Positions 7,393 to 55,246 of a DNA stretch of 64,000 bases are shown here, one piece after another. Position 1 is the stretch's first letter; the number at the start of each line of letters is the position of its first letter. The notes below the pieces were generated by a model that had not been told where the DNA came from, searched no databases, and saw nothing but the letters and a program-made list of their open reading frames with translations. The stretch covers positions 593 through 64,592 of the forward strand of contig JBLNBU010000227.1 in NCBI GenBank assembly GCA_050260215.1. The letters are read 5' to 3'. Source of the stretch: Actinomycetota bacterium (GTDB taxonomy: Bacteria > Pseudomonadota > Alphaproteobacteria > Rhodospirillales > Magnetospirillaceae). The position numbers and the translations under genes were made by a program.

Positions 7393-7505
7393 CCCACCAC
7401 CGCAAGGATCGGGGCCAGCAGCGGCCGAAATTGCGCCAGATAGAGGACCAGGATCACCGCCACCCAGCCCCATCCAAGCAACTCGGACAGGCGCGGGGAT
7501 TTCAT
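7389..7505 (-). CDS. 38-aa single-pass membrane micro-protein (hypothetical)
   Basis: Translation MKSPRLSELLGWGWVAVILVLYLAQFRPLLAPILAVVG. Its ATG overlaps the GT2 stop (ATGA at 7502-7505). Its TGA overlaps the ATG of the GT-C gene (ATGA at 7389-7392). Confidence 0.45.
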   Translation of the reverse strand: MKSPRLSELLGWGWVAVILVLYLAQFRPLLAPILAVVG

Positions 7506-8829: not shown

Positions 8830-8834
8830 GGCGT

Positions 8835-9866: not shown

Positions 9867-9890
9867 GCCCCGCTCCCCTTTACCAGTGTC

Positions 9891-11003: not shown

Positions 11004-11092
11004 GGATTTTCACCCGAAAATGGGGATGTCTTGCTGACCTTTTTTGTCCGCGCGACTGGTATAGCGGGCCAAAGGAAGGGGAACAAGAAGTT

Positions 11093-13012: not shown

Positions 13013-13996
13013 TCAACCCCCGAACAGGAACCGGCCGAACGCGCCCAGCTTCTCGGCGTAATACGGCGCATTGGTGGCGTAGTAGGCGCCGATGACCGCC
13101 GTCATCCACGCCAATATGGCCAACCGGGTCATCCGCTCGCCTCCTGCCAGGGTCGTCGCCGCCGCCACCACCCACGGCGTGCGCAGCAGCTCGAAGGCCG
13201 CCCGCACCGGGTTGCCGCGCCCGCGCCAGGCGGCGAAGGCTTCGTACTGCACGATCAGCGCCCGTGTCCACAGCACCGGCAGGACCGGGCCGCGGCCCTC
13301 GAGCGCGTGGGCGTTGCGCTGCATCACCGCCAGCTCGCACGCACGCCGGCGCGCCACGTTGCCGGTGATGCCGGCCGGGGTCGGATAATAGCGCATCAGC
13401 GCGCCCCTGAAGGTCAGGAAGCGCCCGCGGGCCGCCAGCCGCAGCCACAGGTCGTGGTCTTGGGCGGCGCGCAAGCCGGGCTCGAACCCGCCCGCCGCCA
13501 GCACCGCCGCCCGGCGCGCCACCACGGTTGAGGTGCCGACGAAGCCGCGCTTGAACAGGGCGACGAAGGGATCGCCGTGGAAATGGCGGACGGTGTCGCG
13601 GATCGTTTCGGTTCCGTGTTCATCCACCGCCAGCACGTCGTGGGAGACGAAATCCAGGCCGGGGTCGGCGGCGAACTTTTCCAGGCTGCGTTCCAGCTTT
13701 TCCGGCATCCAGGCGTCGTCGGCGTCGAGGAAGGCGACGAACGTGCCGCGGGCCAGGGCCAGCGCCCGGTTGCGCGCCGCGCCCGCCCCGGCGTTGTCCT
13801 GGCGCACCACCACCAGCCCGATCGCGCCCATGGCCGGCCGGCAGGCCTCGGCGGCGGCAAAGGTGTCGTCGTCCGAGCCGTCGTCGACCACGATGGCTTC
13901 CAGCGGCGGCACCGTCTGGGCGGCGACGCTGGCCAGCGCCCGGGCGATGGTGCCGCCCGCCCGCCAGGCGGGGATGATGACCGACACCTCAGTCAT
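13013..13996 (-). CDS. Glycosyltransferase family 2 with C-terminal membrane segment
   Basis: 327 aa. Motifs VIIPAWRAG, IVVDDGSDDDT and FLDADDAW (DxD). Hydrophobic C-terminus LAILAWMTAVIGAYY. Confidence 0.8.
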   Translation of the reverse strand: MTEVSVIIPAWRAGGTIARALASVAAQTVPPLEAIVVDDGSDDDTFAAAEACRPAMGAIGLVVVRQDNAGAGAARNRALALARGTFVAFLDADDAWMPEKLERSLEKFAADPGLDFVSHDVLAVDEHGTETIRDTVRHFHGDPFVALFKRGFVGTSTVVARRAAVLAAGGFEPGLRAAQDHDLWLRLAARGRFLTFRGALMRYYPTPAGITGNVARRRACELAVMQRNAHALEGRGPVLPVLWTRALIVQYEAFAAWRGRGNPVRAAFELLRTPWVVAAATTLAGGERMTRLAILAWMTAVIGAYYATNAPYYAEKLGAFGRFLFGG

Positions 13997-18800: not shown

Positions 18801-19073
18801 CAGCCAGGGATCGGAACAGGCGATGCGGGTGGTCTCGGGGGCGGCCGCCAGCTGGGCGACCAGACGGGACAGGGCCAGCATGTGGCCGAAATCCGAGATG
18901 TTGGCCGCCTGGGCCAGGGTGTGCGACAGCCCGGCACCAGGGTCGGCGGCGTGGCGGCGGCAGAGTTCCGCCCAGTCGTGGCGGACGGCGTCGTAGGCCT
19001 CCTCCAGGCCCGGGAGGCCGGCGGCGAGGTCGATGGCGTCCGCCCCGGCGGCGGCTGTCAGGATGACCGGCAC
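15870..19073 (-). CDS. Large two-part protein: N-terminal ~550 aa uncharacterised (GT-B-like C-lobe features) fused to a C-terminal heparinase II/III-like domain
   Basis: 1067 aa with a GTG start. The C-terminal half carries PGHGHHDLGSCELHWRGVPVFVDPGRGAYG, which resembles the heparinase II/III family signature. The N-terminal half contains LYCLTSVGLEALLAGLPVI. No signal peptide is visible. Confidence 0.7.
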   Translation of the reverse strand: MPVILTAAAGADAIDLAAGLPGLEEAYDAVRHDWAELCRRHAADPGAGLSHTLAQAANISDFGHMLALSRLVAQLAAAPETTRIACSDPWLFRHLAGLPGVEAGPPPPLLVPELKLALRGLAARAAVSLRMAWAALRLKGQHALANPGEAALLVYGHPTSTPEGGDAYFGELMKGLPRLARLLHVDCPPERATQLAAHGRAAALHGFGSPLAALTLWMRRWRPNGGGWLVRRAGALEGSTGTAAMIAWQMHCQRRWLAACRPAVVAWPWENHAWERDFVRAARAVGTETVGYQHATVGWREWNYGPGSNPDGEDSLPDRILCSGPAGRQRLADYGCPAGRLAVAGALRFAQASAVAHDPAAPVFVALPFDAAIAAEMMAAIRPLAAAGTRFVVRDHPLAPFSFGTDANIARADGPLGVRPGVAAVLYCLTSVGLEALLAGLPVIRFKPAAKVAVDVLPPGVAVAGADAAGLAQALQNAAPAAPLSWSSVWAEPDLALWHGLLGRPGRAAAPARSSLARRLRQLADDPALRRWLIGRALGRRPTPPPFTPYRPPYLGSATLAPVPPPPPPRVAVQPPRVTLALAGGRWTGTDPFAEAFSDIETTLSAHRFAWLPLGGTEPAAVDALWASWRVRFGTPDDGWAWHPYTAAERAVNVLRFARRHGLPGDHADTRAVLAAHAPAIAARLEYFGEHYTGNHLANNGRGLYLLGLELGLAEAAAMGGSILLAEAARIVLPTGMLREGSSHYQLLVARNYVECWLAARRHGRPEAGPLEEVAGRMLAAARRLALPGGLALVGDVSPDCPPSFLAGLLPGGDLGAGWCGLLDDDERALLAALRDGAAAPAGDDGWLRWEGGDWAGLWYASPEGWPPMPGHGHHDLGSCELHWRGVPVFVDPGRGAYGEDGQAALYRSAAVHGLLQVDGADPTPPNRPYYDDSFRARIGGAPPVLAAKPDGVVLVHHGFAAQRVHRAERDWRFGDRGLVIADALDGHPYQHIVTRRLVTPWPVALDNGAVLVETPAGRLRVRAEGAPTLRPLVRWTAYGEGGPATSVSYLLAAAVPWRGETVVEEA

Positions 19074-31562: not shown

Positions 31563-33080
31563 CTATGAGGTGGTGTCGGTGGCCGCGGTGGCGATCGACG
31601 CCGAGCGGCGCCGGCGCTTCTTGGCCTGGCCGCTGAGGAAGTAATAGTTCACCGCCCGCCAGGCATTGCGGATCCAGCTGACCGGGTCGTTGGGGCGGGC
31701 GCCGCGGAAGATGCGGAAGCTCAGCAGGTACGTATTGAAGATCGAGCCGACGAAATTATACAGGCTCGGCAACGGCAGGCTGGCCAGCGGCTTCAACATC
31801 GGCTGCATGAAGTCGGGCAGGTTGCAGAAGATCGGCCCGAGATAGCTGAGGTTCAGCTGGATCCGGCGTTCCATCGCCGTGTAGTTGGTCAGCACCGACT
31901 CGTTGCGATAGGTGTTGTTGTAGTCGAAATTGTCGGGCAGCACGCCTCTCATCTTGGCGTACTCGGTCAGCTCGGTGCGCGGGAACGGGCAGAACACGCT
32001 GAACGTCGCCGCGGTGGGGGCCGCCTTGCGGGCGAAGGCGATGGACTGGAAGTCCTGGTCCAGGGTGGTCCCCGGCAGCCCCAGCATGGTGTTCGAGTGG
32101 GTGTAGATGCCGTACTTGCGCGCGACCGCATAGGCGTTCAGCAGCACCTCGTCGGGCATGTTGCGCTTGAGCACCGCGTTGCGGGCCTCGAGCACGCCGG
32201 TCTCGATGGACATGGAGACCGACTGGCAGCCGGCCTTCTTCAGCAGCCGGCCGACATCGTCGACCAGCCCGTCGGCGCGGATCAGGCAATAGAACGGCAG
32301 GCCGACCTCGCGCGGGTAGCGCTCGGCGAATTCCTCGAGCCAGGCGTCGGCGCGGATGGCGAAGACGTCGTCGGAAAACCGCAGGAAGCGCATTTCCGGG
32401 AAGGTCTCGCGCACGTACTTGATCTCGGCCAGGAGATGGTCGACCGAACGGCGCACGAACAGCTTGCGGCCCTCGCCCTTGAACATCCGGTTGTAGGCGT
32501 GGTTGAAGCAGTAGGTGCACTTGTAGGGGCAGCCGCGCTGGGTCTGGAACGACCGGATGCCGACCTGCTGCAGGTTGGGGTCGAAGTCGTAGATCAGCGA
32601 GCGGTCGAGGAACGGCAGGGCGTCCAGGTCCTCGACGACCTCCTTGATCAGGGTGTCCGATGTGCTGGCCAGCACGTTGGGAATGCCCGAGAAGTCGCGG
32701 CCGGCCTCGATGCGGTCCAAGATGGCGGGCAGGGCGTTGTCGCCATGGCCGACGACGATGGCGTCCAGGCCCATCTTGTCGAGCACTTCGGGGAAGTAGG
32801 TGGCGTGCGGCCCGCCCATGATGCGCCAGACCTTGCGGCCGGTCGCATGCATGTACTCCTTCACCTGGTTGTCGCCCTCGACGAAGATGTGCTCGTTGGC
32901 GGTGATGGTCGAATAGCCGACCAGGTCGGGTTCGAACTCGCGCAGGGCCTCTTCCATGGGCTGGCGGGTCAGCACGCACAGCCGGGTCTGGTGGCCCTTC
33001 TTCTTGGCGATGGCCGACAGCAGCATCACCCCGAGGGGTTCGGAAAAGAACAGGTGGGAGGTGACGAACAGGATCTTCAT
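31563..33080 (-). CDS. B12-binding-domain radical SAM enzyme
   Basis: From MKILFVTSHLF. Motifs DLVGYSTITANE, IMGGPHATYFP, and the cluster motif QRGCPYKCTYCFN. The alternative GTG start at 33101 would overlap the upstream gene. Confidence 0.85.
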   Translation of the reverse strand: MKILFVTSHLFFSEPLGVMLLSAIAKKKGHQTRLCVLTRQPMEEALREFEPDLVGYSTITANEHIFVEGDNQVKEYMHATGRKVWRIMGGPHATYFPEVLDKMGLDAIVVGHGDNALPAILDRIEAGRDFSGIPNVLASTSDTLIKEVVEDLDALPFLDRSLIYDFDPNLQQVGIRSFQTQRGCPYKCTYCFNHAYNRMFKGEGRKLFVRRSVDHLLAEIKYVRETFPEMRFLRFSDDVFAIRADAWLEEFAERYPREVGLPFYCLIRADGLVDDVGRLLKKAGCQSVSMSIETGVLEARNAVLKRNMPDEVLLNAYAVARKYGIYTHSNTMLGLPGTTLDQDFQSIAFARKAAPTAATFSVFCPFPRTELTEYAKMRGVLPDNFDYNNTYRNESVLTNYTAMERRIQLNLSYLGPIFCNLPDFMQPMLKPLASLPLPSLYNFVGSIFNTYLLSFRIFRGARPNDPVSWIRNAWRAVNYYFLSGQAKKRRRRSASIATAATDTTS

Positions 33081-33090
33081 GGACGGCCGA

Positions 33091-34092
33091 TCATGGCTCA
33101 CGGAACGGGACGGGTTCGGGATGGGCGGCCACCTCGGCCACGAGCTTGTCGTGGTCGATGGGGTCGCCCTTGGCGGTGATCAGCTCGGCCAGCATGCCGA
33201 AGCAGAACAGCTGGACCGAGATCACCCCGGTCATCACCCCGAAACTGAGCAATGGGCGGTGCCCGATGCTTTCGCTGGTGAACATCCAGATGCCGGTCAG
33301 GTACAGCAGGGTCACCAGGCTGACGAACCCCAGCGCCACGCCGACGCCGCCGAACAGGTGGCCCGGGCGGGTGGCATAGCGGGTCAGCGCCACCACCGTC
33401 ATCAGGTCGAGCAGCCCGCGCACGTACCGCTCCCACCCGTATTTCGACACACCGTGGCGGCGGGGGTGGTGTTCGACGGGGATCTCGGCGATGCGGAAGC
33501 CCTGGGCGTGGGCCAGCGCCGGTATATAACGGTGCAGCTCGCCGTAGAGGCGGATGTTGCGCAGCACCTCGGCCCGATAGGCCTTGAAGCCGCAGTTGAA
33601 GTCGCGCAGCGCCAGCCCGGTGACGCGTGCGGTCACCATGTTGAACAGCTTGGACGGCAGGGTCTTGTCCAGCGGGTCCTGGCGGCGTTCCTTCCAGCCC
33701 GACACCAGGTCGTAGCCTTCCTCCAGCTTGGCCAGGAAGCGCGGGATCTCCTTGGGATCGTCCTGCAGGTCGGCATCCATGGTGACGATCGCCGCGCCGC
33801 GGGCGCAGCGGAAGCCGGCCATCAGCGCGTCGGCCTTGCCGAAATTGCGCCGAAGCCTGAGCGCGCGGACGACGCGCGGGAACTGCGCCGCCAGGCGCGC
33901 CATTTCCGCCCAGCTGCCGTCGGTGCTGCCATCGTCGACGAGAATGAGTTCGTAGGGAATGTTGCCTGCGGTGGCCATGGCGGCGGCGACGCCTTGGACC
34001 AGTGCGGCCAGTGTCGAGCACTCGTTGAGCGCCGGAACCACCACGCTGACCTTTGGCACGGACAAGTCGGCGCTGATGTTCATAAGCTCCAT
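33091..34092 (-). CDS. Glycosyltransferase family 2, polyprenyl-phosphate glycosyltransferase (ArnC/GtrB/CsbB-like) with two C-terminal transmembrane helices
   Basis: From MELMNISADLSVPKVSVVVPALNE. Motifs LILVDDGSTDGS, MDADLQDDP and SGWKERRQDP. Hydrophobic segments are LFGGVGVALGFVSLVTLLYL and VMTGVISVQLFCFGMLAELI. Confidence 0.85.
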   Translation of the reverse strand: MELMNISADLSVPKVSVVVPALNECSTLAALVQGVAAAMATAGNIPYELILVDDGSTDGSWAEMARLAAQFPRVVRALRLRRNFGKADALMAGFRCARGAAIVTMDADLQDDPKEIPRFLAKLEEGYDLVSGWKERRQDPLDKTLPSKLFNMVTARVTGLALRDFNCGFKAYRAEVLRNIRLYGELHRYIPALAHAQGFRIAEIPVEHHPRRHGVSKYGWERYVRGLLDLMTVVALTRYATRPGHLFGGVGVALGFVSLVTLLYLTGIWMFTSESIGHRPLLSFGVMTGVISVQLFCFGMLAELITAKGDPIDHDKLVAEVAAHPEPVPFREP

Positions 34093-34162: not shown

Positions 34163-34303
34163 CACGACTGCCATTTTCGCGGGGCCGCCCGAGGGGCCCG
34201 CGGGGGGCCGAGCTAGTGCTTCAATTTCAGTTCGATCCGTCGTACAAGGAGCCTGGCCCATGGGGGAGTGCCACTCCCGGAACCGCCCCGAGAAAACTGT
34301 GAA

Positions 34304-35950
34304 ATGACCGTCGCTCCCAATACAAACGCGCCCGCCGTCGACCACGAAATGCGCGCCAAGGCCGGTCCGGTCAATTCGCTGACGGTTGCCGACGCCCTGG
34401 CCGCGTTCGCCCCGCCGGACCCGGCCCGCAGCCGCATCCAGTTGCTGCGCCCGTTCATCGTCATGTCGAAGACGTCCTACAGCACCCCCATCGTGCTGCC
34501 CATCGGTGCCGCCTATATCGGCGGGCTGATGGAGAAGGCGGGGTACGGCGTCGACATCATCGACGCGGTGGGCGAAGCGGTCGGCCAGATCGACCTGACC
34601 GAGGACGGCCGCAAGAAGCGCCAGGGCCTGTCGCCCGCGGCGATTCTTGACCGCATCGACCCCAAGGCGGCGGTGCTGGGCGTGTCGTTGATGTTCTCGC
34701 AGGAATGGATCGAGCATCGCGACCTCATCACCGAGATCCGCGCCCGCCATCCCGACATGATCATCGTCGCCGGCGGCGAGCACGTCACCGCCATGCCCCA
34801 GTTCGTGCTCGAGACCTGCCCCGCCATCGACTACCTGGTGATGGGCGAAGGCGAGCTGACCTTCCTCGAGCTGGTCCACCGCCTGCTGGCGGGCAAGCCG
34901 GTCGACGGCATGACCGGCATCGCCTATCGCGGGGCCGACGGCAAGGTGGTCCACACCGGGGTCGGCCGGCGCATCGTCGACTTCCAGAACCTGCCGCGTC
35001 CGGCCTGGCACCTGTGCCCGGTCGACAGCTATTTCGGCAAGGCGTTCGCCTTCGGCGTCTCGTTCGGCCGCAACATGCCGATCCTGGCCACCCGCGGCTG
35101 CCCGTACCAGTGCACCTTCTGCTCGAACCCGACCATGTGGACGACGCGCTACACCATGCGCGATCCGGCCGACGTGGTCGACGAGATCGAGCACCTGATC
35201 GCCACCTACGGCTGCAACAGCATCGACTTCGCCGACCTGACCGCCATCGTCAAGAAGCAGTGGATCCTGGACTTCTGCGTCGAACTGAAGCGGCGCAACG
35301 TCCGCATCGTCTGGCAGCTGCCCACCGGTACCCGTGCCGAGGCGCTGGACCACGAGACCCTGTCGGCCATTTACGACGCCGGCTGCCGGCTGGTGGTCTA
35401 TGCCCCCGAAAGCGGCTCGGAAGAGACGCTGAAGCTGATCAACAAGCGGCTCAAGCTGCAGAACGTGCTGGCCAGCGCGGCAGTGGCGGCCGAGATCGGC
35501 CACATGACCAAGGTGAACTTCATCCTGGGCTTTCCCGGCGAAACCCGCCGCTCCATGCTCGAGACCATCTGGTGCTGCCTCAAGATGGCGACCAAGGGGG
35601 TGGGGGACTGCAACGTCGCGGTGTTCTCGCCCTATCCGGGCTCGCTGCTGTTCAAGCAGCTGGTCGATGCGGGCAAGATCGACATCAACAGCGATGAATA
35701 CTTCCACGACCTGATCACGTTCTTCGATTTCACCCACTTGCGGGCCTATAACGAGAACGTCCCGGCGTGGGAGATCGGCATCTACCGGTTCATCGGCCTG
35801 GCCGGCTTCTACTCGGCCTCGTACCTGCTCTATCCCAAGCGCCTGTGGCGCCTGCTCAAGGGCGTGCTGGGCCACGAGTTCAAGCCGCAGTCGCTGTTCG
35901 AGCAGCGGGTCTACGACGCGATCGTGCGGTCGCGGCGGGCGGCCGACTGA
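34304..35950 (+). CDS. B12-binding-domain radical SAM enzyme
   Basis: From MTVAPNTNAP. Motifs VLGVSLMFSQEW, IIVAGGEHVTAMP, and the cluster motif TRGCPYQCTFCSNP. Confidence 0.85.
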   Translation: MTVAPNTNAPAVDHEMRAKAGPVNSLTVADALAAFAPPDPARSRIQLLRPFIVMSKTSYSTPIVLPIGAAYIGGLMEKAGYGVDIIDAVGEAVGQIDLTEDGRKKRQGLSPAAILDRIDPKAAVLGVSLMFSQEWIEHRDLITEIRARHPDMIIVAGGEHVTAMPQFVLETCPAIDYLVMGEGELTFLELVHRLLAGKPVDGMTGIAYRGADGKVVHTGVGRRIVDFQNLPRPAWHLCPVDSYFGKAFAFGVSFGRNMPILATRGCPYQCTFCSNPTMWTTRYTMRDPADVVDEIEHLIATYGCNSIDFADLTAIVKKQWILDFCVELKRRNVRIVWQLPTGTRAEALDHETLSAIYDAGCRLVVYAPESGSEETLKLINKRLKLQNVLASAAVAAEIGHMTKVNFILGFPGETRRSMLETIWCCLKMATKGVGDCNVAVFSPYPGSLLFKQLVDAGKIDINSDEYFHDLITFFDFTHLRAYNENVPAWEIGIYRFIGLAGFYSASYLLYPKRLWRLLKGVLGHEFKPQSLFEQRVYDAIVRSRRAAD

Positions 35951-42032: not shown

Positions 42033-44161
42033 GCACCTACGACGTCGTGCTGGCGGCGTTGACCGCGGTGGCCTTCCTGTCGGCTGCCGGTTTCACTTGG
42101 GTCCACGGGCCCGTCGCCCTATCGCGCCGCCAGGCCGTGGCGGTGGGGGCGACCTGGGTGGCCGTGGTCAGCGCCGAATTCGTCTTCTTCGGGCCCTATT
42201 CGTATCTGGGCACCTTCGCCGAGATGGATTTCACCGTGCTGGTCCAGCAGTACCTGGTCGAGCACCATGGCGGCGGCCAGTTCGCCCATGCCTTCGCCGG
42301 CGGCAACGACGTCGATGCGCTGGGCGTGTTCACCGGGCAGTTCCTGGCGCTCGACCGCGTGCTGCTGTCGGTCCTGCCGATGTGGGCGGTGACCGGCGCC
42401 ATCCGGGTGGCCCAGGAGGCGCTGGCGCTGGCCGGGGTGTACCTGCTGTGCCGGCGCCTGTGGCAGTCCGACCGCTTCCTGGCCCTGTGCCTGGGCGCCA
42501 TCTATTCGCTCAGCAACCATTATTTCTTCAAGCTGACCATGGCCCATGGGCTGGCCTTTGCCCTGATGCCGGTCCTGGTCCTGGTGTTCGTCGCCCGGGT
42601 GGGGCGGCCCCATTACTGGTGGTGGGTGGTGGGGCTGTCGGCCCTGCACGCCATCTCGTGCACGCCGACCCACTCGGGTCCGCCGGTGTTCGCCGCCCTG
42701 GCCTTCGCCATCTTGCTGATCGCCCCCAAGCCGGCGTGGAAGCCGATGGCGGCGATCGCCATCCTGCTGGTGGCGGTGCTGCTGAACTGGCACGAAAGCC
42801 TGTGGGGCAAGATGCAGCTGGCCCCCTGGGCCTTCCGCTCCAGCCAGATCGACCTGACCCGGTCGCTGTCCGGCATAGGCGCCCGGCTGGTCCAGGACGT
42901 CACCGACGTCGAGGAGCACCGCAACTACACCCTGTGGCTGGCGCTGGCTCTGCTGTGGTGGACCGGCCATCCGTTGCGCCGCCGCATTGCTGCCGTCACC
43001 CTGGGCACCGCGCTCGGCGGCACCGTGGTGCAGAACCTGCCCTGGGCCGCCATCGGCCTGAAGGCGGTGGCCGCGGTGGACTGGGAGAGGGTGGCCTTCT
43101 CCATGGACCTGTTCGTGCTGCTGGCCATGGCGGCCGCCCACCAGCGCAAGGTCCTTGCCCGGCCGGCGCCGCGTGTCGGCATGGCCGCCATGGCGGGACT
43201 GGCCGCGGCCGCGCTGGTGGCCACCAAGGTCCAGGAACTGGGCAGCTGGGTCAGCCTGGGCGGTCTGCCCGTCATCGAGCAGGGCCGCGTCAACATCGCC
43301 CGCGCCGGCATTCCGGCGGACAAACCGGTCAGGGTGGTGTCCATGCCCTACCGGCTGCCGGCCGACCTGGCGGTGGTGGCCGGGCTGGACACCCTTGACG
43401 GCACCTTCAACCTGAACCTGTCGTCGCTGTCCTATTTCTGGCTGGACGCGGTCTTGAAGCATCCGTCGGACGCGGCATCCAGCTACCTCTCCCTTGCCAC
43501 CAGCGCCTTCGACGACAAGTGCTGCGCCAGCTACGACCTGGGCCAGCATGCCGACCTCGCCATGCTGCGGCTGATGAACGTGGGCTATGTGCTGAGCGTG
43601 CTGCCGCTGACCGGCGAGGGCGTCACCCAGGTGTCGGGCCCCGGCCCGGAAGAGATGATGCCGACCCGCCGCGTCGACCAGTTGTCCGCGCGCCTTGCCG
43701 GCTATCTGCGGGAAATGGTGCGCACGCCGCCGGTGCGCGTCTATTCCATCGGCGAGCCGTTGCCGCGGGTCTATGCGGCGACCGCGGTGGTGGCGACCGA
43801 GCTTGACCCGACGACGCCCGAGTTCTTCGACCTGCTCCGGCGCGAAGGGCCCGCCCGCAAGGTCCTGGTGGCCGCCGGCCGCGCCGGCGCCCTGCCCGCG
43901 TCCGCGGCCATGACGGTGCGCCGCTACGCCCTGCCGGCCGACGCGGTCACCGCCGAGGTCGAGGCACCGTCCGGCGGCACGCTGGTGGTCGCCATTCCGT
44001 TCACGCCGTGGTGGACGGCGACCGTCGACGGCCGGCCGGTGGACATCGTGCCGGTCAACGCCGCCCAGATGGCGGTGTCGGTGCCCGCCGGCGGCCGCTC
44101 GGTCGAGCTGCGCTACCACCGCCCCACCTTGCGCGAGAAGCTGGTGGGCGGGCGGCGCTAG
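42029..44161 (+). CDS. YfhO-like integral-membrane glycosyltransferase (GT-C fold), paralog of 35952-38057
   Basis: From MSTYDVVLAALTAVAFLSAAGF. Polytopic, with the C-terminal tail TPWWTATVDGRPVDIVPVNAAQMAVSVPAGGRSVELRY. Its ATG forms an ATGA overlap with the upstream stop. Confidence 0.65.
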   Translation: MSTYDVVLAALTAVAFLSAAGFTWVHGPVALSRRQAVAVGATWVAVVSAEFVFFGPYSYLGTFAEMDFTVLVQQYLVEHHGGGQFAHAFAGGNDVDALGVFTGQFLALDRVLLSVLPMWAVTGAIRVAQEALALAGVYLLCRRLWQSDRFLALCLGAIYSLSNHYFFKLTMAHGLAFALMPVLVLVFVARVGRPHYWWWVVGLSALHAISCTPTHSGPPVFAALAFAILLIAPKPAWKPMAAIAILLVAVLLNWHESLWGKMQLAPWAFRSSQIDLTRSLSGIGARLVQDVTDVEEHRNYTLWLALALLWWTGHPLRRRIAAVTLGTALGGTVVQNLPWAAIGLKAVAAVDWERVAFSMDLFVLLAMAAAHQRKVLARPAPRVGMAAMAGLAAAALVATKVQELGSWVSLGGLPVIEQGRVNIARAGIPADKPVRVVSMPYRLPADLAVVAGLDTLDGTFNLNLSSLSYFWLDAVLKHPSDAASSYLSLATSAFDDKCCASYDLGQHADLAMLRLMNVGYVLSVLPLTGEGVTQVSGPGPEEMMPTRRVDQLSARLAGYLREMVRTPPVRVYSIGEPLPRVYAATAVVATELDPTTPEFFDLLRREGPARKVLVAAGRAGALPASAAMTVRRYALPADAVTAEVEAPSGGTLVVAIPFTPWWTATVDGRPVDIVPVNAAQMAVSVPAGGRSVELRYHRPTLREKLVGGRR

Positions 44162-44242
44162 GGCCGCATTTCCTTACGGTCGGACCATTGCCTATGATAT
44201 ATGGGCAGATGGGCCGGTGGGCCGTTTTCTCGAGGAAGCAGC

Positions 44243-45325
44243 ATGTATGACATTGAGTTCTTTCGTCGCGTCGAACCGCTGAGAAAGAAGATCGTCGAGC
44301 GCCAGTTCACCAAGGCCGACGTGCCCGCGCTCATCGAGGAGCTCGAGGCGCTGGTGAGCGCGCAGCCCTATGTGTTCAACATCGAGACCACCAACTACTG
44401 CAACATGAAGTGCGTCATGTGCCCGCGCACGACGCTGATGACGCGCAAGAACATGTGGATCGACGGCGACGACTTCGCCAAGGTGATCTCGCAGATCAAG
44501 CCCCACGATCCCGAGCGTCTGGCGGAATTCCACAACTACGTGGCCGAGCGTTACAACGTCAGCTACGACCGCCCCGACGAGAATGCCTTCTATTTCCACG
44601 TCTCGTCGCGCTGCCTGACCCTGCACGGCTATGGCGAGCCGATGCTGGACAAGCACATCCTCGAGCGCGTGCGGGTGTGCCGCGAGCATGGGGTGCCGAC
44701 CTATTTCTCCTGCGTGCCCGCCAACGCCACCGTGGCCAGGGTCGAGGAACTGATGCAGGCCGGCCTGGACGTGCTGAAGTTCTCGGTGGATGCGCTCGAC
44801 GACGAGCAGCAGAAGAAGGTGCGCGGCGCCCGCAACAACTTCGACGCCGCCTTCCAGACCATCCTCGACATCCTCGAGCTGAAGAAGGCCAAGGGCTACC
44901 AGACGCTGATCGTGGTCACCATGATCGAGCTGTCCACCGACGCCGAGGCCCAGGCCATGCACCAGCGCTTCCTCGACCTGTGGAAGGGCCGCGACGTGTT
45001 CGCCTACATCAAGAGCCAGGACAACCGCTGGTACTTCGAGGCCGACGAGAACCTTGAGAACCGCTCCCACTACGAGCAGCAGTACTGCGAGTATCCGTGG
45101 ACCTCGTTCACGGTGATGGCCGACGGGTCGGTGGTGCCGTGCACCCAGGACTACGACGTCGAAATGGTGCTGGGCAATGTCCGCGAGCAGACCCTCGAGG
45201 AGATCTGGAACGGCGAGCGCTATCGCACCTTCCGCAGCTGGCACGTCAGCGGGAATTTCCCCAAGGGCCACAAGTGCGCCGAGCGTTGCGACCAGAAGAA
45301 ACTGTGCGGCTACCTGAAGCCGTGA
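44243..45325 (+). CDS. Radical SAM enzyme with C-terminal SPASM/twitch-type Cys-rich domain
   Basis: From MYDIEFFRRV. Cluster motif TTNYCNMKCVMCPR. C-terminal cysteines CEYPW...VVPCTQDY...HKCAERCDQKKLCGY. GAGGAA lies 6 nt upstream of the ATG. Confidence 0.8.
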   Translation: MYDIEFFRRVEPLRKKIVERQFTKADVPALIEELEALVSAQPYVFNIETTNYCNMKCVMCPRTTLMTRKNMWIDGDDFAKVISQIKPHDPERLAEFHNYVAERYNVSYDRPDENAFYFHVSSRCLTLHGYGEPMLDKHILERVRVCREHGVPTYFSCVPANATVARVEELMQAGLDVLKFSVDALDDEQQKKVRGARNNFDAAFQTILDILELKKAKGYQTLIVVTMIELSTDAEAQAMHQRFLDLWKGRDVFAYIKSQDNRWYFEADENLENRSHYEQQYCEYPWTSFTVMADGSVVPCTQDYDVEMVLGNVREQTLEEIWNGERYRTFRSWHVSGNFPKGHKCAERCDQKKLCGYLKP

Positions 45326-45389
45326 AGCCCCGCCCCGCGTTGCCGCGTCCCAGCGAATAGGCTATTTTCTGGACCTCGAAAGGGTGGAC

Positions 45390-46115
45390 ATGGCAACCGT
45401 ACTCGCATTGGTCCCCGCTCGCGGCGGCTCGAAGGGCATTCCCGGCAAGAACCTTCGCATGCTGGGCGGGCATCCCATGCTCGCCTACGCCATCGCCGCG
45501 GCGCGCCAGGCCGGCCTGGTCACCCGCGTCATCTGCTCGACCGACTCGCCCGAGATCGCCGAGGTGGCGCTGCGCTACGGCGCCGAGGTGCCGTTCATGC
45601 GCCCGTCCGAATTCGCCCAGGACCACAGTACCGACATCGAAGTGTTCCGCCATGCCCTGGAATGGCTGGACACCAACGACGGCTGGCGGCCCGACCTGGT
45701 CGCCAACGTGCGCTGCACCTCGCCGTTGCGCCGGGCAGGCGAGCTGGACCGCGCCATCGCCATGCTGCGCGACCGCCCCGAAGCCACCTCGATCCGCTCG
45801 GTCTGCCCGGCCGACCATACGCCCTACAAGATGTGGCGGGTGGGCGAGGACGGGGTGATGCACCAGTTGCTGGACGTCCCCGGGCTGTTCGAGCCGTTCA
45901 ACCAGCCGCGCCAGAAGCTGCCGCCGACCTGGTGGCAGACAGGACAGATCGATATCGCCCGGCGCACGGTGATGACCGAACTGGGGGGCATGTCCGGCCC
46001 GGTGATCCTGAGCTTTCCGGTCGAGCGGCGCCTGGCGGTGGATATCGACGGCGAGCACGACTTCCTCCGCGCCGAGGACCTGCTGGCCGCCATCCCCGAC
46101 TGCGTGCGTCCATGA
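45390..46115 (+). CDS. Acylneuraminate (nonulosonate) cytidylyltransferase family, NeuA/LegF/PseF-like
   Basis: Motifs LVPARGGSKGIPGKNL and VICSTDS. ATG 45390 is preceded by AAGGGTGG; the ORF-track GTG 45384 is 2 codons earlier. Confidence 0.85.
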   Translation: MATVLALVPARGGSKGIPGKNLRMLGGHPMLAYAIAAARQAGLVTRVICSTDSPEIAEVALRYGAEVPFMRPSEFAQDHSTDIEVFRHALEWLDTNDGWRPDLVANVRCTSPLRRAGELDRAIAMLRDRPEATSIRSVCPADHTPYKMWRVGEDGVMHQLLDVPGLFEPFNQPRQKLPPTWWQTGQIDIARRTVMTELGGMSGPVILSFPVERRLAVDIDGEHDFLRAEDLLAAIPDCVRP

Positions 46116-47101
46116 GCCTGCGGCACCTCATTTGCGGCGTGGGCTCCATCGGCGAGCGCCACATCCGCAACCTGCTGGCCCTGGGACACGAGGACATCAT
46201 CCTGCTGCGCCGTGCCGACGGGCCGTTGCGCACCATCGACCAAGGCTTCCCCTCGGTGTCCACCCTGGCCGAGGCGCTGGATGCCCGGCCCGACACCGCC
46301 TTCGTCTGCAATCCCACCCACCTGCACCTGGAAACCGCCACGGCCTGCGCCGAGGCCGGCTGCCACCTGTTCGTGGAAAAGCCCATCGCCCACGGGCTTG
46401 ACGGCCTGGACCGTTTGCGTGCTGCGGTCGCCGCCAGCGGCAAGGCATGCATGGTGGGCTACATGCTGCGCTTCCATCCCTGCCTGCGGCAGGTCAAGCG
46501 GTGGCTGGACCAGGGCCGCATCGGCACGCCCGCCTTCGCCCTGTCCGAGTGGGGCGAGTACCTGCCCGACTGGCATCCGTGGGAGGACTACCGCGCCTCG
46601 TACTCGGCCCGTCGCGACATGGGCGGCGGCCCCGTGCTGACGCTCAGCCACGATATCGACATGCTGCTGTGGCTGCTGGGCGGCGTGTCCGCGGTCAAGG
46701 CCATGACCGGCAGCAATTCGCCGCTCGAACTCGGATGCGAGCACTGGGCGCAGCTTCTGCTGTCCTTCGAAACCGGCGCCACCGCCGCGGTGCACCTGGA
46801 CTATCTCCAGCGCCCGCCCCGGCGCAGCCTGGCGATCACCGGCTCGGACGGCCGCATCGCGTTCGACTATTACCGGGGCGTGGCGACCCTGACGCCCGCG
46901 GGTGCCGCCGAACCGGCGGAAATCGCGGATGCGGGCGCCGGCTTCGACCGCAACGACATGTTCGTCGCCGAGTTGCGGGCATTTCTCGACGCCGTGGCGG
47001 GACGGGCCCCGGTGTCCCCTGATCTGGAAGACGGCGTACGGGCGCTCTCGGTCGCACTGGCCGGGCTGCGCTCCGCCGAAGCCGCCGGCACGGCGCCATG
47101 A
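46112..47101 (+). CDS. Gfo/Idh/MocA family oxidoreductase
   Basis: From MSLRHLICGVGSIGERH. Motif HLFVEKP. Its ATG forms an ATGA overlap with the upstream stop. Confidence 0.8.
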   Translation: MSLRHLICGVGSIGERHIRNLLALGHEDIILLRRADGPLRTIDQGFPSVSTLAEALDARPDTAFVCNPTHLHLETATACAEAGCHLFVEKPIAHGLDGLDRLRAAVAASGKACMVGYMLRFHPCLRQVKRWLDQGRIGTPAFALSEWGEYLPDWHPWEDYRASYSARRDMGGGPVLTLSHDIDMLLWLLGGVSAVKAMTGSNSPLELGCEHWAQLLLSFETGATAAVHLDYLQRPPRRSLAITGSDGRIAFDYYRGVATLTPAGAAEPAEIADAGAGFDRNDMFVAELRAFLDAVAGRAPVSPDLEDGVRALSVALAGLRSAEAAGTAP

Positions 47102-47116
47102 GGACACAGGCTTGGG

Positions 47117-49372
47117 ATGACCATGAACATCGAGCATAACCTCGCCCGCTACGTAGTCTTCGCCGAGGCGCCCATCCTGGACGCGCTGGCCAAGATGACC
47201 CAGCAGAAGCAACGCTTCATCTTCTCGGTGACGGCGTCGGGGCACCTGGAAGGCGTGGTGACCGACGGCGACATCCGCCGCTGGCTGGTCGAGCAGGAGC
47301 ACATCGACCTGACCCTGCCCATCGCGCGGGTCTCCAACAAGAAGTTCGTCAGCGCCTCGGTCGACGAAGACCCCGAGACCGTCGCCCAGATGTTCAGCGA
47401 GGTCATCGAGTTCGTCCCCCTGCTCGACGGCTGGGGCCATCTGGTCGCCGTCGCCCACCGCAAGCCGCGGGCGCTGGTGCTGGGCGGCTTCACCATCGGG
47501 TCCGATTCGCCGGCCTTCCTGATTTCCGAGATCGGCAACAACCACAACGGCGATGTCGAACTGGCCCACCGCCTGGTCGACCTGGCCGCCGACGCCGGGG
47601 CCCAGTGCGTCAAGTTCCAGATGCGCTCGATGTCGTCGCTGTACCGCAACCGGGGCCGCGCCGACAGCAGCGGCGAAGACCTGGGGGCCGAATACACCCT
47701 GGACCTGCTGGCGCGCTTCAACCTGCCTGCCGAGCAGCTGTACCGCGTCTTCGACCATTGCCGCAGCCGGGGCGTGGTGCCGCTGTGCACCCCGTGGGAC
47801 CTGGAAAGCGTCGCCAACCTGGAACGCTACGGCATCGAGGGCTACAAGATCGCCTCGGCCGACCTGACCAACCACGATCTGCTGGAAGCGGTCGCGGCCA
47901 CCCGCAAGCCGCTCCTGCTGTCGACCGGCATGTCGCGCGAAACCGAGATCATCGAAAGCGTCAAGCTGCTGCAGCGCCGCGGCGCGCCGTTCATGCTGCT
48001 GCACTGCAACTCGACCTATCCCACGCCCTTCAAGGATGTCAACCTGGCCTACATGGACCGGCTGCGCGACATCGGCCAGGGTCCGGTGGGCTATTCGGGG
48101 CACGAACGCGGCTTCGCCGTGTGCATCGCCGCCGTCGCCCGCGGCGCCAAGGTGATCGAAAAGCACTTCACCATCGACCGCGACTTCGAGGGCAGCGACC
48201 ACAAGATCAGCCTGTTGCCCGGCGAGTTCGCCGACATGGTCGCCGCCATCCGCGCCACCGAGGAAGCCATGGGCAGCTCGCGCCGGCGCGAGATCACCCA
48301 GGGCGAGCTGATGAACCGCGAAAACCTGGCCAAGAGCCTGGTCGCCGCCTGCGACATCCCCGAGGGCGAGGTCATCGCTGCGCCCATGCTGGCGGTGAAA
48401 AGCCCGGGCCGCGGCCTGCAGCCCAACCGCCGCCACGAGCTGATCGGCCGCCGGCTGCGGCGCCCCGTGGCCGCCGGCGACTTCTTCTATCCCAGCGACC
48501 TCGAAGACCAGCAGATCCAGCCGCGCGCCTACCGGTTCGGCCGCCCGTGGGGCGTGCCGGTGCGCTATCACGACAGCCGCGCCATCCGGGCCCTGGTCTC
48601 GCCCGACTTCCTCGAATACCACCTGTCCTACAAGGACATGGACCTGAAGCTGGAAGACTGGTTCGACGCCCCCGTGGACATGGACTTTACCGTCCACTGC
48701 CCCGAGCTGTTCGCCGGCGACCATGTGGTCAACCTGTGTTCCGACGACCAGGCCTATCGCCAGCGCTCCATCGACGAGCTCAACCGCGTCTGCGACGTGG
48801 CGCGTGCGCTGCGTCCCTGGCACGCCAAGGCGGCGGCGCGCACCTTGATCGTCACCAACATGGGCGGCTTCAGCGAGTACAAGCCCATCGACCCGGCCGA
48901 CCGGGCGCGACTTTACGACATGGTGCTGGAAAGCCTGCGCTCGGTCGACACCAGCGACGTCGAAATCATTCCGCAGACCATGCCGCCGTTCCCCTGGCAT
49001 TTCGGCGGGCAGCGCTTCCACAACCTGTTCGTCGACCCCCAGGAGATCGCCGACATCTGCCACGCCAACGGCATGCGGATCTGCCTGGACGTCTCCCATT
49101 CCCAGCTGGCCTGCAACCACTTCGGCTGGTCCATGTCCGACTTCGTCCGGCTGACCGGGCCGGTCACCGCCCATCTGCACATCGCCGATGCCGCCGGCGT
49201 CGACGGCGAGGGGCTGCAGATCGGCGAGGGCACCATGGACTTCCGCGCCCTGGGCGACGAGCTCAATCGGGATGCGCCCGCCGCCTCGTTCATCCCGGAA
49301 GTGTGGCAGGGCCACAAGAACAACGGCGAAGGGTTCTGGATCGCGCTCGATCGCCTCGAGGGCAAGATCTAG
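47117..49372 (+). CDS. Multi-domain CBS + NeuB-type nonulosonate/sialic-acid synthase + SAF + xylose-isomerase-like TIM-barrel protein
   Basis: 751 aa. The first ~115 aa are CBS-like (GVVTDGDIRRWL). The NeuB core has PAFLISEIGNNHNGD and CVKFQMR. The SAF region is LVAACDIPEGEVIAAPMLAVKSPGRGL. The last ~280 aa look like a sugar-phosphate isomerase/epimerase TIM barrel. Boundaries are by eye. Confidence 0.75.
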   Translation: MTMNIEHNLARYVVFAEAPILDALAKMTQQKQRFIFSVTASGHLEGVVTDGDIRRWLVEQEHIDLTLPIARVSNKKFVSASVDEDPETVAQMFSEVIEFVPLLDGWGHLVAVAHRKPRALVLGGFTIGSDSPAFLISEIGNNHNGDVELAHRLVDLAADAGAQCVKFQMRSMSSLYRNRGRADSSGEDLGAEYTLDLLARFNLPAEQLYRVFDHCRSRGVVPLCTPWDLESVANLERYGIEGYKIASADLTNHDLLEAVAATRKPLLLSTGMSRETEIIESVKLLQRRGAPFMLLHCNSTYPTPFKDVNLAYMDRLRDIGQGPVGYSGHERGFAVCIAAVARGAKVIEKHFTIDRDFEGSDHKISLLPGEFADMVAAIRATEEAMGSSRRREITQGELMNRENLAKSLVAACDIPEGEVIAAPMLAVKSPGRGLQPNRRHELIGRRLRRPVAAGDFFYPSDLEDQQIQPRAYRFGRPWGVPVRYHDSRAIRALVSPDFLEYHLSYKDMDLKLEDWFDAPVDMDFTVHCPELFAGDHVVNLCSDDQAYRQRSIDELNRVCDVARALRPWHAKAAARTLIVTNMGGFSEYKPIDPADRARLYDMVLESLRSVDTSDVEIIPQTMPPFPWHFGGQRFHNLFVDPQEIADICHANGMRICLDVSHSQLACNHFGWSMSDFVRLTGPVTAHLHIADAAGVDGEGLQIGEGTMDFRALGDELNRDAPAASFIPEVWQGHKNNGEGFWIALDRLEGKI

Positions 49373-53365: not shown

Positions 53366-55246
53366 TCAGCGCCCCCGGCGCAGCGGCACCATGGCCGGGT
53401 CGTCGACCAGGGCGCCGGCCATGTCCTCGGTGACGATCTTGCGCAAGGACCGGTACTGGTCGAGCTTGGCCGTCGCCCGCCGTCCCGACACCAGCCAGCG
53501 CGCCCACTCGGCCACCAGGGACGCCGCATAGCCGATGCCGCCGGCGCGGCCCGCCTTCAGCAGCACCAGCAGCGGCAGCAGCGCACGCAGGCGATAGGCC
53601 AGCAGCGGATAGCAGATCAGCGCCATGCCAAGGTTGCCTGATCGCAGCAGCCCCCACAGCGGCGGCAGGCGCGGGGTGTCGTCGACTTCCAGGGCGTCCT
53701 TGGTGTCGTGCAGCGAATCGGTGGTCAGGCTGCGGTCGACCAGGCGCTTGGGGTTGGCGAAGAAGCCGTCGGTCGGCCGCTTGCGCTTGAAGTAGTTGGT
53801 GTCGTTGAGCAGCACCCGGTGATAGTGGTCCAGCCCGAACTGGGCCACATAGGCGGCGTTGACCTCGATCTGGATGCGCGGGCGCCACATCTGGCAGACC
53901 AGGCGGGGCTGGTCGGTGAAGTTGAGCGTGGTCACCTCGTCGTGGGCGTCCTTGTCGGACACCCGCAACAGATAGGCCTCCTCGCCGTCGACGCCGCCGC
54001 CGATCAGGCCGCGGGCGCGGGCGAAGTCGTAGAGCGGCGTGCCGGGCAGCGCCTGGGCATAGTTGATGGACAGGTCGTTGGGGTTCTGGCGGGCGTCCAG
54101 CGTCATGGCGAACTTGCAGAACTCGATGGTCTCGGCGACGGTGTCCGAGGTCTCGCCCGGCATGCCCAGCACCAGCTGCACCACGGTGTACAGCCCGGCG
54201 CCGATGGTCCACTCCATGGCGTTGTAGTTGTCGGCCAGCTGGACCTTCTTCTCCATCACCTGCAGCATGCGCTCGGACCCGGTCTCCATGCCGAAGAACA
54301 GGGTGACGCAGCCGGCGTCGCGCATCATGGCGATCTGCTCGGGGGTGACGCAGTTGACCCGCATCCCCGACACCCGCCACAAAAGGTCCAGCGGCTTGAC
54401 CTTTTCGCAGAACTCGGCCAGCCAGCGCCGGTCGGTGCCGAAGTTCTCGTCGCCGACGGCGAAGAAGCCGACCTCGTGCCTTTCCTTGAGCAGGGTCAGG
54501 CGCTCGACCAGCAGGTCGACCGGGATGTAGCGGATGCCCTTGTCGAAGCGGTGGCAGAAGGTGCAGCGCGCCACGCACCCCTTCGAGCAGCGGATGGTCA
54601 CCAGCTTCTTGCCGCGCCGGTGAGGCTGGAAGGTCCGGGGATCGCCCTGCAGCCAGTACTCGACCTCGTCGTCGCGGACGGGATCGTTGATGTAGGTGTC
54701 GGCCGGCGCCGAGGCGAACAACTCGTCCCAGTCGATGTCGAAGACCTGCGAGGCCGGCAGCGAGGGGGCGAAGCCGGTATTGAGCAGCGACCCGTCGCGG
54801 CCCAGCACCGCCAGTCCGGGAATGTCGGCGAACTCGGCCGCCACCCGGGTTTCCTTGGCCCGGCGCACGATGGCCAGGAATGCCTCCTCGCCCTCGCCGG
54901 TGCAGCAGATGTCGGTGCCGGTGCGATTGAGCAGCACCTCGGCGCTGGCGGCCAGGTTGCCGCCCACCACCACCAGGCAGTCGGGCAGCAGGCGCTTGAC
55001 GTCCAGCGACAGGCGCTTGGTGAAGGCGTAGGCGGTCGACACCACCGCGCTGATGCCCAGCACGTCGGGACGCGCCTCGACGATGCGCTTCAGCGCCTCG
55101 TCATAGGGCGGGCGGTTGCCGTCGATGTTATAGAACTCGGCCTGCTCGCCGTGGCGGCGCAGGTAGTTCAGCAGCGCCAGGCTGCCGAACGGTGGCGTGC
55201 TGGTCGGCCGCGGCCGGATGGGGGTGTTGACGATCAGGACCTTCAT
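53366..55246 (-). CDS. B12-binding-domain radical SAM enzyme
   Basis: 626 aa. Motifs MKVLIVNTP, VLGISAVVSTAY, VVVGGNLAAS, and the cluster motif SKGCVARCTFCHR. Its ATG forms an ATGA overlap with the WbpL-like stop. Confidence 0.85.
   Translation of the reverse strand: MKVLIVNTPIRPRPTSTPPFGSLALLNYLRRHGEQAEFYNIDGNRPPYDEALKRIVEARPDVLGISAVVSTAYAFTKRLSLDVKRLLPDCLVVVGGNLAASAEVLLNRTGTDICCTGEGEEAFLAIVRRAKETRVAAEFADIPGLAVLGRDGSLLNTGFAPSLPASQVFDIDWDELFASAPADTYINDPVRDDEVEYWLQGDPRTFQPHRRGKKLVTIRCSKGCVARCTFCHRFDKGIRYIPVDLLVERLTLLKERHEVGFFAVGDENFGTDRRWLAEFCEKVKPLDLLWRVSGMRVNCVTPEQIAMMRDAGCVTLFFGMETGSERMLQVMEKKVQLADNYNAMEWTIGAGLYTVVQLVLGMPGETSDTVAETIEFCKFAMTLDARQNPNDLSINYAQALPGTPLYDFARARGLIGGGVDGEEAYLLRVSDKDAHDEVTTLNFTDQPRLVCQMWRPRIQIEVNAAYVAQFGLDHYHRVLLNDTNYFKRKRPTDGFFANPKRLVDRSLTTDSLHDTKDALEVDDTPRLPPLWGLLRSGNLGMALICYPLLAYRLRALLPLLVLLKAGRAGGIGYAASLVAEWARWLVSGRRATAKLDQYRSLRKIVTEDMAGALVDDPAMVPLRRGR

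Follow-up and report, generated by a model that had tools for sequence, protein, structure and literature searches.

What would a radical S-adenosylmethionine (SAM) enzyme contribute to the synthesis of a sialic-acid-like sugar? The question is raised by a gene at positions 44243–45325 (plus strand) of a 64,000-nucleotide stretch of contig JBLNBU010000227.1 (assembly GCA_050260215.1, Magnetospirillaceae; the whole stretch is called 'the window' below), which precedes genes for a NeuA-like cytidylyltransferase, a Gfo/Idh/MocA oxidoreductase and a NeuB fusion protein. Its product, P0001, is a radical SAM / Twitch-domain enzyme of 360 amino acids whose translation is free of stops and includes TTNYCNMKCVMCPR. 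An earlier reading, made from the letters of this DNA (the 'sequence-only reading'), had proposed that the protein directs radical SAM chemistry at a carbohydrate, as one step on the way to a nine-carbon (or related) keto-sugar acid. That proposal gains support from the structural matches of P0001 to BtrN, DesII and BlsE and from the NeuB genes near most of its homologs, both described below. The explanation that we favor, and to which we give about an even chance of being correct, is that P0001 is a BtrN-like, Twitch-type radical SAM dehydrogenase acting on a sugar of the nonulosonic acid pathway rather than on a peptide.

A Pfam scan of P0001 returned Radical_SAM (PF04055; 48.5 bits against a cut-off of 29.5, E = 1.4e-12, residues 47–236) and SPASM (PF13186; 67.2 bits against a cut-off of 21.5, E = 1.5e-18, residues 282–349) and no domain beyond these two, with no RRE or PqqD match. 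The CX3CX2C motif expected to hold the SAM-cleaving [4Fe-4S] cluster (C53, C57 and C60; 44399–44422, plus strand) is invariant in an alignment of 20 family members (52–68% identity) and in all 112 representatives of a wider superfamily alignment. The Twitch-type auxiliary-cluster region (45086–45289, plus strand) comprises C282-X17-C300, with G295-X4-C300, and C345-X3-C349. All four of these cysteines are invariant in the family; C282, C300 and C345 are found in 112 of 112 superfamily representatives and C349 in all but one.

A Twitch domain is a shortened SPASM domain in which one set of cysteines binds a cluster, whereas a SPASM domain carries two auxiliary clusters (PMC9012708). Despite its match to the PF13186 profile, P0001 does not have the seven or eight conserved cysteines, for two [4Fe-4S] clusters, of a full SPASM domain; since only four C-terminal cysteines are invariant, one auxiliary cluster is predicted and not two. 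The sequence-only reading had described a cysteine-rich, SPASM/twitch-like C-terminus and had named auxiliary-cluster cysteines missing on alignment as evidence against its proposal. The cysteines are present, and the twitch part of the description stands while the full-SPASM part falls away: judged by its sequence, the C-terminal region of P0001 is a Twitch domain with one predicted cluster.

A family profile compared with the Protein Data Bank (PDB) gave BtrN as its best match (entries 4M7S and 4M7T; E = 9e-15). A Foldseek search of the PDB with an AlphaFold model of P0001 (pLDDT 84, pTM 0.86) placed BtrN first, DesII second and BlsE third, with SuiB, PqqE and MoaA lower; the first three all act on sugars or cyclitols. 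The sequence-only reading had suggested placing the protein among the SPASM/twitch subfamilies. By profile it is BtrN-like, and no named NCBIfam family claims it, the best-scoring model in the NCBIfam scan (tungsten-cofactor maturase) reaching 75 bits against a cut-off of 380.

BtrN, the 2-deoxy-scyllo-inosamine dehydrogenase of butirosin synthesis, combines a radical SAM core with a Twitch domain holding one auxiliary [4Fe-4S] cluster on four cysteines, as is predicted for the family described here. In the profile alignment its C...C...CxxC series falls on C282...C300...C345xxxC349 of P0001, the last pair being spaced CX3C in P0001 and CX2C in BtrN. BtrN carries out the two-electron oxidation of a secondary alcohol to a ketone, with its four-cysteine-ligated auxiliary cluster as the proposed electron acceptor (PMC9012708). 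Members of the present family are about 90 residues longer than the BtrN chains that were matched (360 versus 269–270 amino acids), and P0001 differs from BtrN in a 40-residue N-terminal helical extension (three short helices in the AlphaFold model) and in a longer stretch from the cluster loop to the GxGEP strand. The 2-deoxystreptamine genes that form the context of BtrN are absent, and the neighbors of P0001 are NeuA, Gfo and NeuB genes. With this other gene context and an identity of about 15%, P0001 is BtrN-like at most and not an ortholog of BtrN. DesII (8HZY and 8HZV) and BlsE (7VOB) act on nucleotide- or nucleoside-linked sugars, which makes an activated sugar plausible for P0001 as well. 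They catalyze deamination/dehydrogenation and decarboxylation, respectively, share 12–15% identity with P0001, and were not matched significantly in the sequence-profile search of the PDB.

Neighboring genes were compared across 106 loci that carry an ortholog, which were dereplicated at 85% identity of the radical SAM protein to 66 clusters (the 66 loci of the counts below); 32 of these are flanked on each side by 3 kb or more of sequence. The neighbor classes counted here come from tblastn searches with few queries and set thresholds, on metagenomic contigs that are often short. Among the 32 well-flanked loci, which come from several phyla, NeuB lies within 7.5 kb of the radical SAM gene in 29 and a CTP_transf_3 gene in 27, the co-occurrence with NeuA and NeuB that the sequence-only reading had proposed to look for in other genomes. 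The radical SAM gene is no more than 200 nt from a CTP_transf_3 gene in 21 of the 66 loci and no more than 100 nt from NeuB in 13. It also sits in compact operons, ordered NeuB-NeuC-Gfo-NeuA-radical SAM in one genome (G078) and NeuB-NeuC-radical SAM-Gfo-NeuA in two loci (L094 and L086). By its conserved co-location with a NeuB synthase and a cytidine monophosphate (CMP)-sugar cytidylyltransferase, it belongs to nonulosonic acid cassettes. The gene travels with genes for sialic-acid-like nine-carbon surface sugars, in marine SAR11 bacteria among others.

Most of the loci hold, close to the radical SAM gene, one further gene for an oxidoreductase or aminotransferase, which we term its partner. 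A PtmA-like short-chain dehydrogenase/reductase (SDR) starts 3–74 nt after the radical SAM stop codon in 18 of the 66 loci; it scores 328 bits with NF006619 (cut-off 255) and 219 bits with the PtmA equivalog model, below the cut-off of 350. A Gfo/Idh/MocA oxidoreductase lies within 2 kb, often within 50 nt, in 17 loci. A class-III aminotransferase lies within 4.5 kb in eight, all in the clade that contains the SAR11 genomes, and a DegT aminotransferase within 2 kb in two. One locus (L001, Roseospira/Rhodospira) has an extended SDR 255 nt downstream. Exactly one partner class is present in 46 of the 66 loci and two classes in none, and in 15 of the 20 loci with no partner the flanking sequence is shorter than 2.5 kb on one side or both. 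L048 alone has both an SDR and a Gfo gene, and there the pair flanks a NeuA gene, 3.8–5.3 kb upstream of the radical SAM gene.

If the class of partner followed the clade of the radical SAM protein, different reactions would be suggested. We rejected this possibility, as the partner labels switch many times on a maximum-likelihood tree of the 66 proteins: its starred branches require that the SDR label was gained or lost at least nine times, and the Gfo label likewise. The pattern, as read from gene assignments and the tree, is one of repeated non-orthologous replacement of one partner by another, with unrelated predicted oxidoreductase folds beside closely related radical SAM proteins.

The BtrN-aligned four-cysteine cluster, the sugar-acting structural neighbors and the interchangeable reductase or aminotransferase partner together suggest a radical SAM enzyme that makes a keto-sugar, and it is because the partners are interchangeable reductases or aminotransferases that a keto intermediate is favored over other options. 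In the mechanism that we propose, the CX3CX2C cluster would cleave SAM, the resulting 5'-deoxyadenosyl radical would abstract a hydrogen from a carbinol carbon of the sugar, and the cysteine-ligated auxiliary [4Fe-4S] cluster would accept the second electron to leave a ketone. A dedicated partner would then consume the keto-sugar. In the window this would be the Gfo/Idh/MocA oxidoreductase encoded two genes downstream, which might reduce the ketone from the other face, giving a net irreversible epimerization, or feed the TIM-barrel domain of the NeuB fusion. In relatives the role would fall to an SDR, either PtmA-like or extended, or to an aminotransferase of the class-III or DegT type, the aminotransferases yielding an amino sugar. 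NeuB and the NeuA-like cytidylyltransferase would build and activate the nine-carbon acid. We infer the oxidation itself, the roles of the partners and the order of the steps.

Two known pathways resemble parts of this scheme. In butirosin synthesis, the ketone made by BtrN is next used by an aminotransferase, an order similar to the pairing of radical SAM enzyme and aminotransferase in the SAR11 loci. In Shewanella, KdnB oxidizes 3-deoxy-D-manno-oct-2-ulosonic acid (Kdo), which KdnA then transaminates to Kdo8N; this pair is a precedent for the oxidation and transamination of a finished ulosonic acid, but the oxidant there is a metal-dependent alcohol dehydrogenase and not a radical SAM enzyme.

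The candidate substrates are a hexosamine precursor, the free nonulosonic acid and its CMP ester. We lean toward a step after condensation, on the free acid or the CMP ester, because the minimal operons contain a full NeuC/NeuB/NeuA set and, besides it, only the radical SAM and Gfo genes. A bolder version, which we put forward tentatively and regard as doubtful, is that the enzyme forms a 'keto hub': it would oxidize an unactivated carbinol, in the side chain or the ring, of the finished nonulosonic acid or CMP ester without NAD, after which an SDR or Gfo enzyme, or a class-III or DegT aminotransferase, would convert the ketone to epimeric or amino sugars. The SAR11 loci contain the radical SAM gene together with genes for a class-III aminotransferase, NeuC, NeuB and NeuA, and no 4,6-dehydratase was seen in their flanks.

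Several points weigh against the assignment of P0001 as a dehydrogenase. It comes from comparison of sequences and models; the identity to BtrN is only about 15%, and the fold matches have moderate TM-scores (0.46–0.65). Epimerization by oxidation followed by reduction is a costly route, and the subfamily-specific invariant cysteines C146 and C157, discussed below, could hint at other chemistry. Sugar clusters are in any case rich in oxidoreductases and aminotransferases, five of the 32 well-flanked loci have no partner, and in the window the Gfo gene is parted from the radical SAM gene by the NeuA gene. A distant member of the family (42% identity; L035, 6021–8101) is not in a NeuB cluster at all. 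Lastly, there are legionaminic acid clusters in which genes for a PtmA-like SDR and a PtmF-like oxidoreductase adjoin that for the CMP synthetase and for which the published gene table has no radical SAM enzyme (PMC4481668), and part of the linkage to SDR and Gfo genes may run through NeuA, or a block of the ptm type, rather than through the radical SAM gene.

The cluster of Plesiomonas illustrates this last point. Its published gene table has ptmA (SDR), legF (CMP synthetase) and ptmF (a 326-amino-acid oxidoreductase) side by side, the same set of neighbors as around the present family, and lists no radical SAM enzyme (PMC4481668). Unlike that table, in which ptmA and ptmF occur together, the loci described here usually have one of the two oxidoreductase types plus the radical SAM gene. 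Linkage through a ptm-type block is countered by two observations: the radical SAM–SDR pair also occurs in two loci (L024 and L036) with no NeuA or NeuB gene in the available sequence, and SDR and Gfo genes are found together in L048 only. As to the distant member in L035, its gene starts 2 nt after one for a ROK-family protein (kinase) and lies near a glucoamylase gene; the wider family may act on other sugars.

First among the alternatives, and in our view unlikely, is a radical 1,2-diol dehydratase. Such an enzyme would remove a hydrogen beside a vicinal hydroxyl, for example in the C7–C9 glycerol side chain, and water would be lost to give a keto-deoxy sugar that then passes to the partner. 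This deoxygenation would account equally for a ketone-consuming, tightly linked and mutually exclusive partner and differs from the dehydrogenase mechanism in the radical step only; moreover, deoxygenation at an unactivated carbon needs radical chemistry and epimerization does not. DesII, the second-best structural match, catalyzes an elimination on a nucleotide sugar. AprD4 and AprD3 of apramycin synthesis, a radical SAM dehydratase and its dedicated NADPH reductase, provide the model for this order of reactions, and as a two-gene unit acting on a sugar they resemble the radical SAM–SDR pairs spaced 3–74 nt apart. The likeness is one of organization: AprD4 has a different domain make-up, and no homology to it was seen, none having been looked for. 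What speaks for the dehydrogenase instead is the four-cysteine auxiliary cluster aligned with that of BtrN, an arrangement linked to net two-electron oxidation (PMC9012708).

The cysteines that are specific to the family bear on a second alternative, also improbable and ranked below the first, in which P0001 would epimerize a sugar C–H center directly: a protein cysteine would return hydrogen to the opposite face and the neighboring oxidoreductases would be unrelated to the reaction. NeoN and HygY are twitch enzymes of this kind, and nonulosonic acids differ mainly in their stereochemistry. C146 and C157 are invariant in the 20-member alignment and C124 nearly so (C355 varies); all three are confined to the tight family, and position 157 is mostly Thr in the wider superfamily. 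The AlphaFold model predicts a strand beta-3 with C157 at its C-terminal end, and the C-terminal ends of strands are the usual place of active-site residues in the radical SAM fold. The peptide epimerase EpeE is among the fold matches but ranks well under BtrN, DesII and BlsE, and direct epimerization would leave unexplained both the close coupling of the SDR gene in 18 loci and the exclusive swapping of reductases and aminotransferases.

We attach a small probability to other chemistry on a sugar or nucleotide, which could be a BlsE-like decarboxylation, a C–C bond-forming reaction or rearrangement of a keto-sugar supplied by the SDR or Gfo partner, or a viperin-like dehydration of the cytidine nucleotide that the neighboring cytidylyltransferase uses. 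The rank of BlsE among the top fold matches would fit the first of these, and the CTP_transf_3 gene no more than 200 nt away in 21 of 66 loci, together with a weak NCBIfam match to prokaryotic viperin over the radical SAM core (E = 3.8e-8, far below the cut-off), can be counted for chemistry of this kind; no feature singles out any one of the reactions. Viperin has no auxiliary cluster, and we rejected a viperin-like assignment of P0001, the likeness being confined to the shared radical SAM core.

Maturases of RiPPs (peptides synthesized ribosomally and then modified post-translationally) usually bear an RRE domain. The classical SPASM role, in which a small precursor peptide, a sulfatase or another protein (flagellin, for example) would be matured, is very improbable. 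In its favor are the Pfam SPASM match, partial NCBIfam matches to maturases, tungsten-cofactor maturase and PqqE among them, none of which comes near its cut-off, and one locus (L089) with a flagellin gene immediately after the radical SAM gene. Set against it are a single auxiliary-cluster motif, no PqqD or RRE domain, no small open reading frame (ORF) in the gaps, conserved neighbors across phyla that are sugar enzymes, and a flagellin neighbor in L089 that fits a flagellin glycosylation island. The anaerobic sulfatase-maturating enzyme (anSME), PqqE and SuiB have the SPASM profile and the general fold in common with P0001, whereas the two auxiliary clusters of anSME and RiPP maturases (PMC9012708) and their peptide substrates are features not seen for P0001.

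The gaps on either side of the gene were inspected for a peptide substrate. A YfhO-like gene upstream has its stop at 44161, which confirms the 81-nt gap (44162–44242) given by the sequence-only reading, and 64 nt separate the radical SAM gene from the ATG of the NeuA-like gene at 45390. Neither gap contains a free-standing small ORF, the only ones present being out of frame and overlapping the genes; the claim that no precursor-peptide ORF lies there thus holds. In nine annotated loci of close members, no gene of less than 60 amino acids lies beside the radical SAM gene, except for a 52-amino-acid ORF on the opposite strand that overlaps the radical SAM stop codon in L037. No sulfatase domain was found among the window genes scanned with Pfam. 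A conserved precursor gene or a sulfatase partner, either of which the sequence-only reading had named as evidence against its proposal, is absent from the gaps and from these genes. We rejected a RiPP-maturase assignment (no RRE or PqqD-like domain, no adjacent precursor gene) and an anaerobic sulfatase-maturase assignment (no sulfatase partner, no family model above its cut-off).

The start of the radical SAM gene is placed at ATG 44243 and not at the in-frame ATG 44201, because 19 of 19 aligned homologs begin M[YF]D[IV] and a Shine-Dalgarno-like GAGGAAG (44232–44238) lies 4 nt upstream. The gap also contains the TATGAT hexamer noted earlier, at 44193–44198 rather than 44194–44199, one base off. 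As a hint of a promoter it is weak, with no acceptable −35 hexamer at a spacing of 16–18 nt. A sigma-70 consensus scan of 43900–45500 found no promoter, and the same scan gave a weak terminator-like hairpin at 44152–44167, overlapping the upstream stop codon. Since the scan yielded no promoter and only this weak hairpin, the description of the gene as heading the cassette is undemonstrated.

The three genes downstream, all on the plus strand, are as the sequence-only reading had named them, and Pfam and NCBIfam scans uphold those identities. The first (45390–46115) encodes a NeuA/PseF/LegF-like CMP-sugar cytidylyltransferase (CTP_transf_3, PF02348; E = 3e-24), with PseF as its best NCBIfam match (144.8 bits against a cut-off of 205.7). 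Its stop codon overlaps the start of the next gene as ATGA (46112–46115), suggesting translational coupling of the cytidylyltransferase with the oxidoreductase. The latter (46112–47101) is an NAD(P) sugar oxidoreductase assigned to Gfo/Idh/MocA by Pfam; among proteins of solved structure it is nearest to 1,5-anhydro-D-fructose reductase, inositol dehydrogenases and DgpA. We count this nearness to keto-sugar reductases and inositol dehydrogenases in favor of the dehydrogenase reading of P0001. The third gene (47117–49372) encodes a 751-amino-acid fusion with the Pfam architecture CBS-NeuB-SAF-AP_endonuc_2, the last domain being a xylose-isomerase-like TIM barrel; its NCBIfam scores are 313 bits with NeuB_NnaB (cut-off 399.65) and 228 bits with PseI (cut-off 340.25). 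No NeuC-type (Epimerase_2) homolog was found in the window by tblastn, and a TIM barrel is fused to NeuB instead. With no NeuC, and with NeuB and NeuA below the equivalog cut-offs, the cassette as annotated is not a canonical set for Neu5Ac, legionaminic or pseudaminic acid.

The CBS-NeuB-SAF-TIM architecture also stands beside the radical SAM gene in L018 and L089, and in L046 and L048 tblastn gives matches to both the NeuB and the TIM query segments, near one another and beside it. Counted over the 66 loci, NeuC (Epimerase_2) occurs in 14, a TIM barrel, free or in the fusion, in seven, and both in none; the carriers of the TIM barrel are the window (47117–49372) and L018, L046, L048, L051, L055 and L089. 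The TIM barrel may be a substitute for NeuC that supplies the aldose condensed by NeuB. Compared with PDB sequences, it has a single weak match, to MJ1311 (E = 0.007). In L018 the NeuB fusion is followed by an unannotated 532-amino-acid protein, a 50%-identity homolog of which is encoded in the window at 17568–19010 (minus strand), 25 kb from the cassette; it forms part of a 1078-amino-acid ORF whose C-terminal domain is heparinase II/III-like. Components of the L018 cassette lie scattered in the window.

Elsewhere in the window there are three large radical SAM genes with B12-binding domains (31563–33101, 34268–35950 and 53366–55246), and genes of this type lie within 7.5 kb of the Twitch-type gene in 12 of the 66 loci (L005, L022, L023, L037 and others). 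In the source genome, NeuB-family genes number five, each on a contig of its own, which is an unusually large repertoire for nonulosonic acids (contigs concerned: C279, C20, C227, C211, C44 and C200), and contig C200 carries a second Twitch-like radical SAM gene (33% identity over residues 124–341). The compact operon of L094 continues with a methyltransferase gene and a second, shorter Radical_SAM/SPASM protein of 296 amino acids (10558–11448). In L037, a 429-amino-acid fusion of HAD phosphatase and CTP_transf_3 (8267–9556) adjoins the radical SAM gene and is followed by DegT and short NeuB genes, a hint of a phosphorylated sugar as substrate of the synthase in that locus. Immediately after the radical SAM gene of L089 come a flagellin gene (Flagellin_N) and one for a 721-amino-acid TPR protein (7001–12626), and in L001, from Roseospira, a TPR-GT41 protein is encoded about 2.5 kb downstream (11571–13898). 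From these two contexts, at least some of the cassettes appear to serve flagellin glycosylation.

A word-indexed search returned 585 homologs of the radical SAM protein, the best 120 of which have 53–68% identity over full length; source labels include Roseospira, Rhodospirillales, Nitrospina, Acidiferrobacteraceae, Pirellulaceae, Magnetococcales and Deltaproteobacteria. An exhaustive search gave 51 clusters (50% identity) at E < 1e-30, within a superfamily of about 3,500 at E < 1e-10. A pattern scan of species genomes identified carriers in two Rhodospirillaceae and 14 Pelagibacteraceae. The gene is rare: it was present in one of 400 other genomes sampled from the phylum and in seven of 301 genomes of the family to which Candidatus Pelagibacter (L011) belongs, the seed genome included. 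A glycan island that varies from strain to strain would fit this rarity.

As decorations of flagella, capsules and lipopolysaccharides, nonulosonic acids (the sialic, legionaminic and pseudaminic acids with their epimers) shape recognition by phages and immune systems. Their described routes employ NAD(P), pyridoxal phosphate, acetyl-CoA and phosphoenolpyruvate chemistry, and we know of none with a radical SAM enzyme; full-text literature searches likewise returned no paper linking radical SAM enzymes to nonulosonic acids, NeuB, legionaminic or pseudaminic acid, or Pelagibacter. The enzyme described here probably adds an undescribed oxidative step to the pathway. What is new, on our best reading of the comparisons, is the recruitment of a BtrN-type radical step into the synthesis of sialic-acid-like sugars. 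If the conserved radical step is real, a class of nonulosonic acids, or a route to them, is still to be described, and radical SAM enzymology would gain a Twitch family that does not act on peptides and that is tractable, having compact operons of five genes. Should the enzyme also act on the finished acid or its CMP ester as a common source of ketone, the pairing seen in SAR11 would amount to a new way of making amino-nonulosonic acids in which the C9 hydroxyl is retained, and some of the ocean's most abundant cells would bear an undescribed class of sugar.

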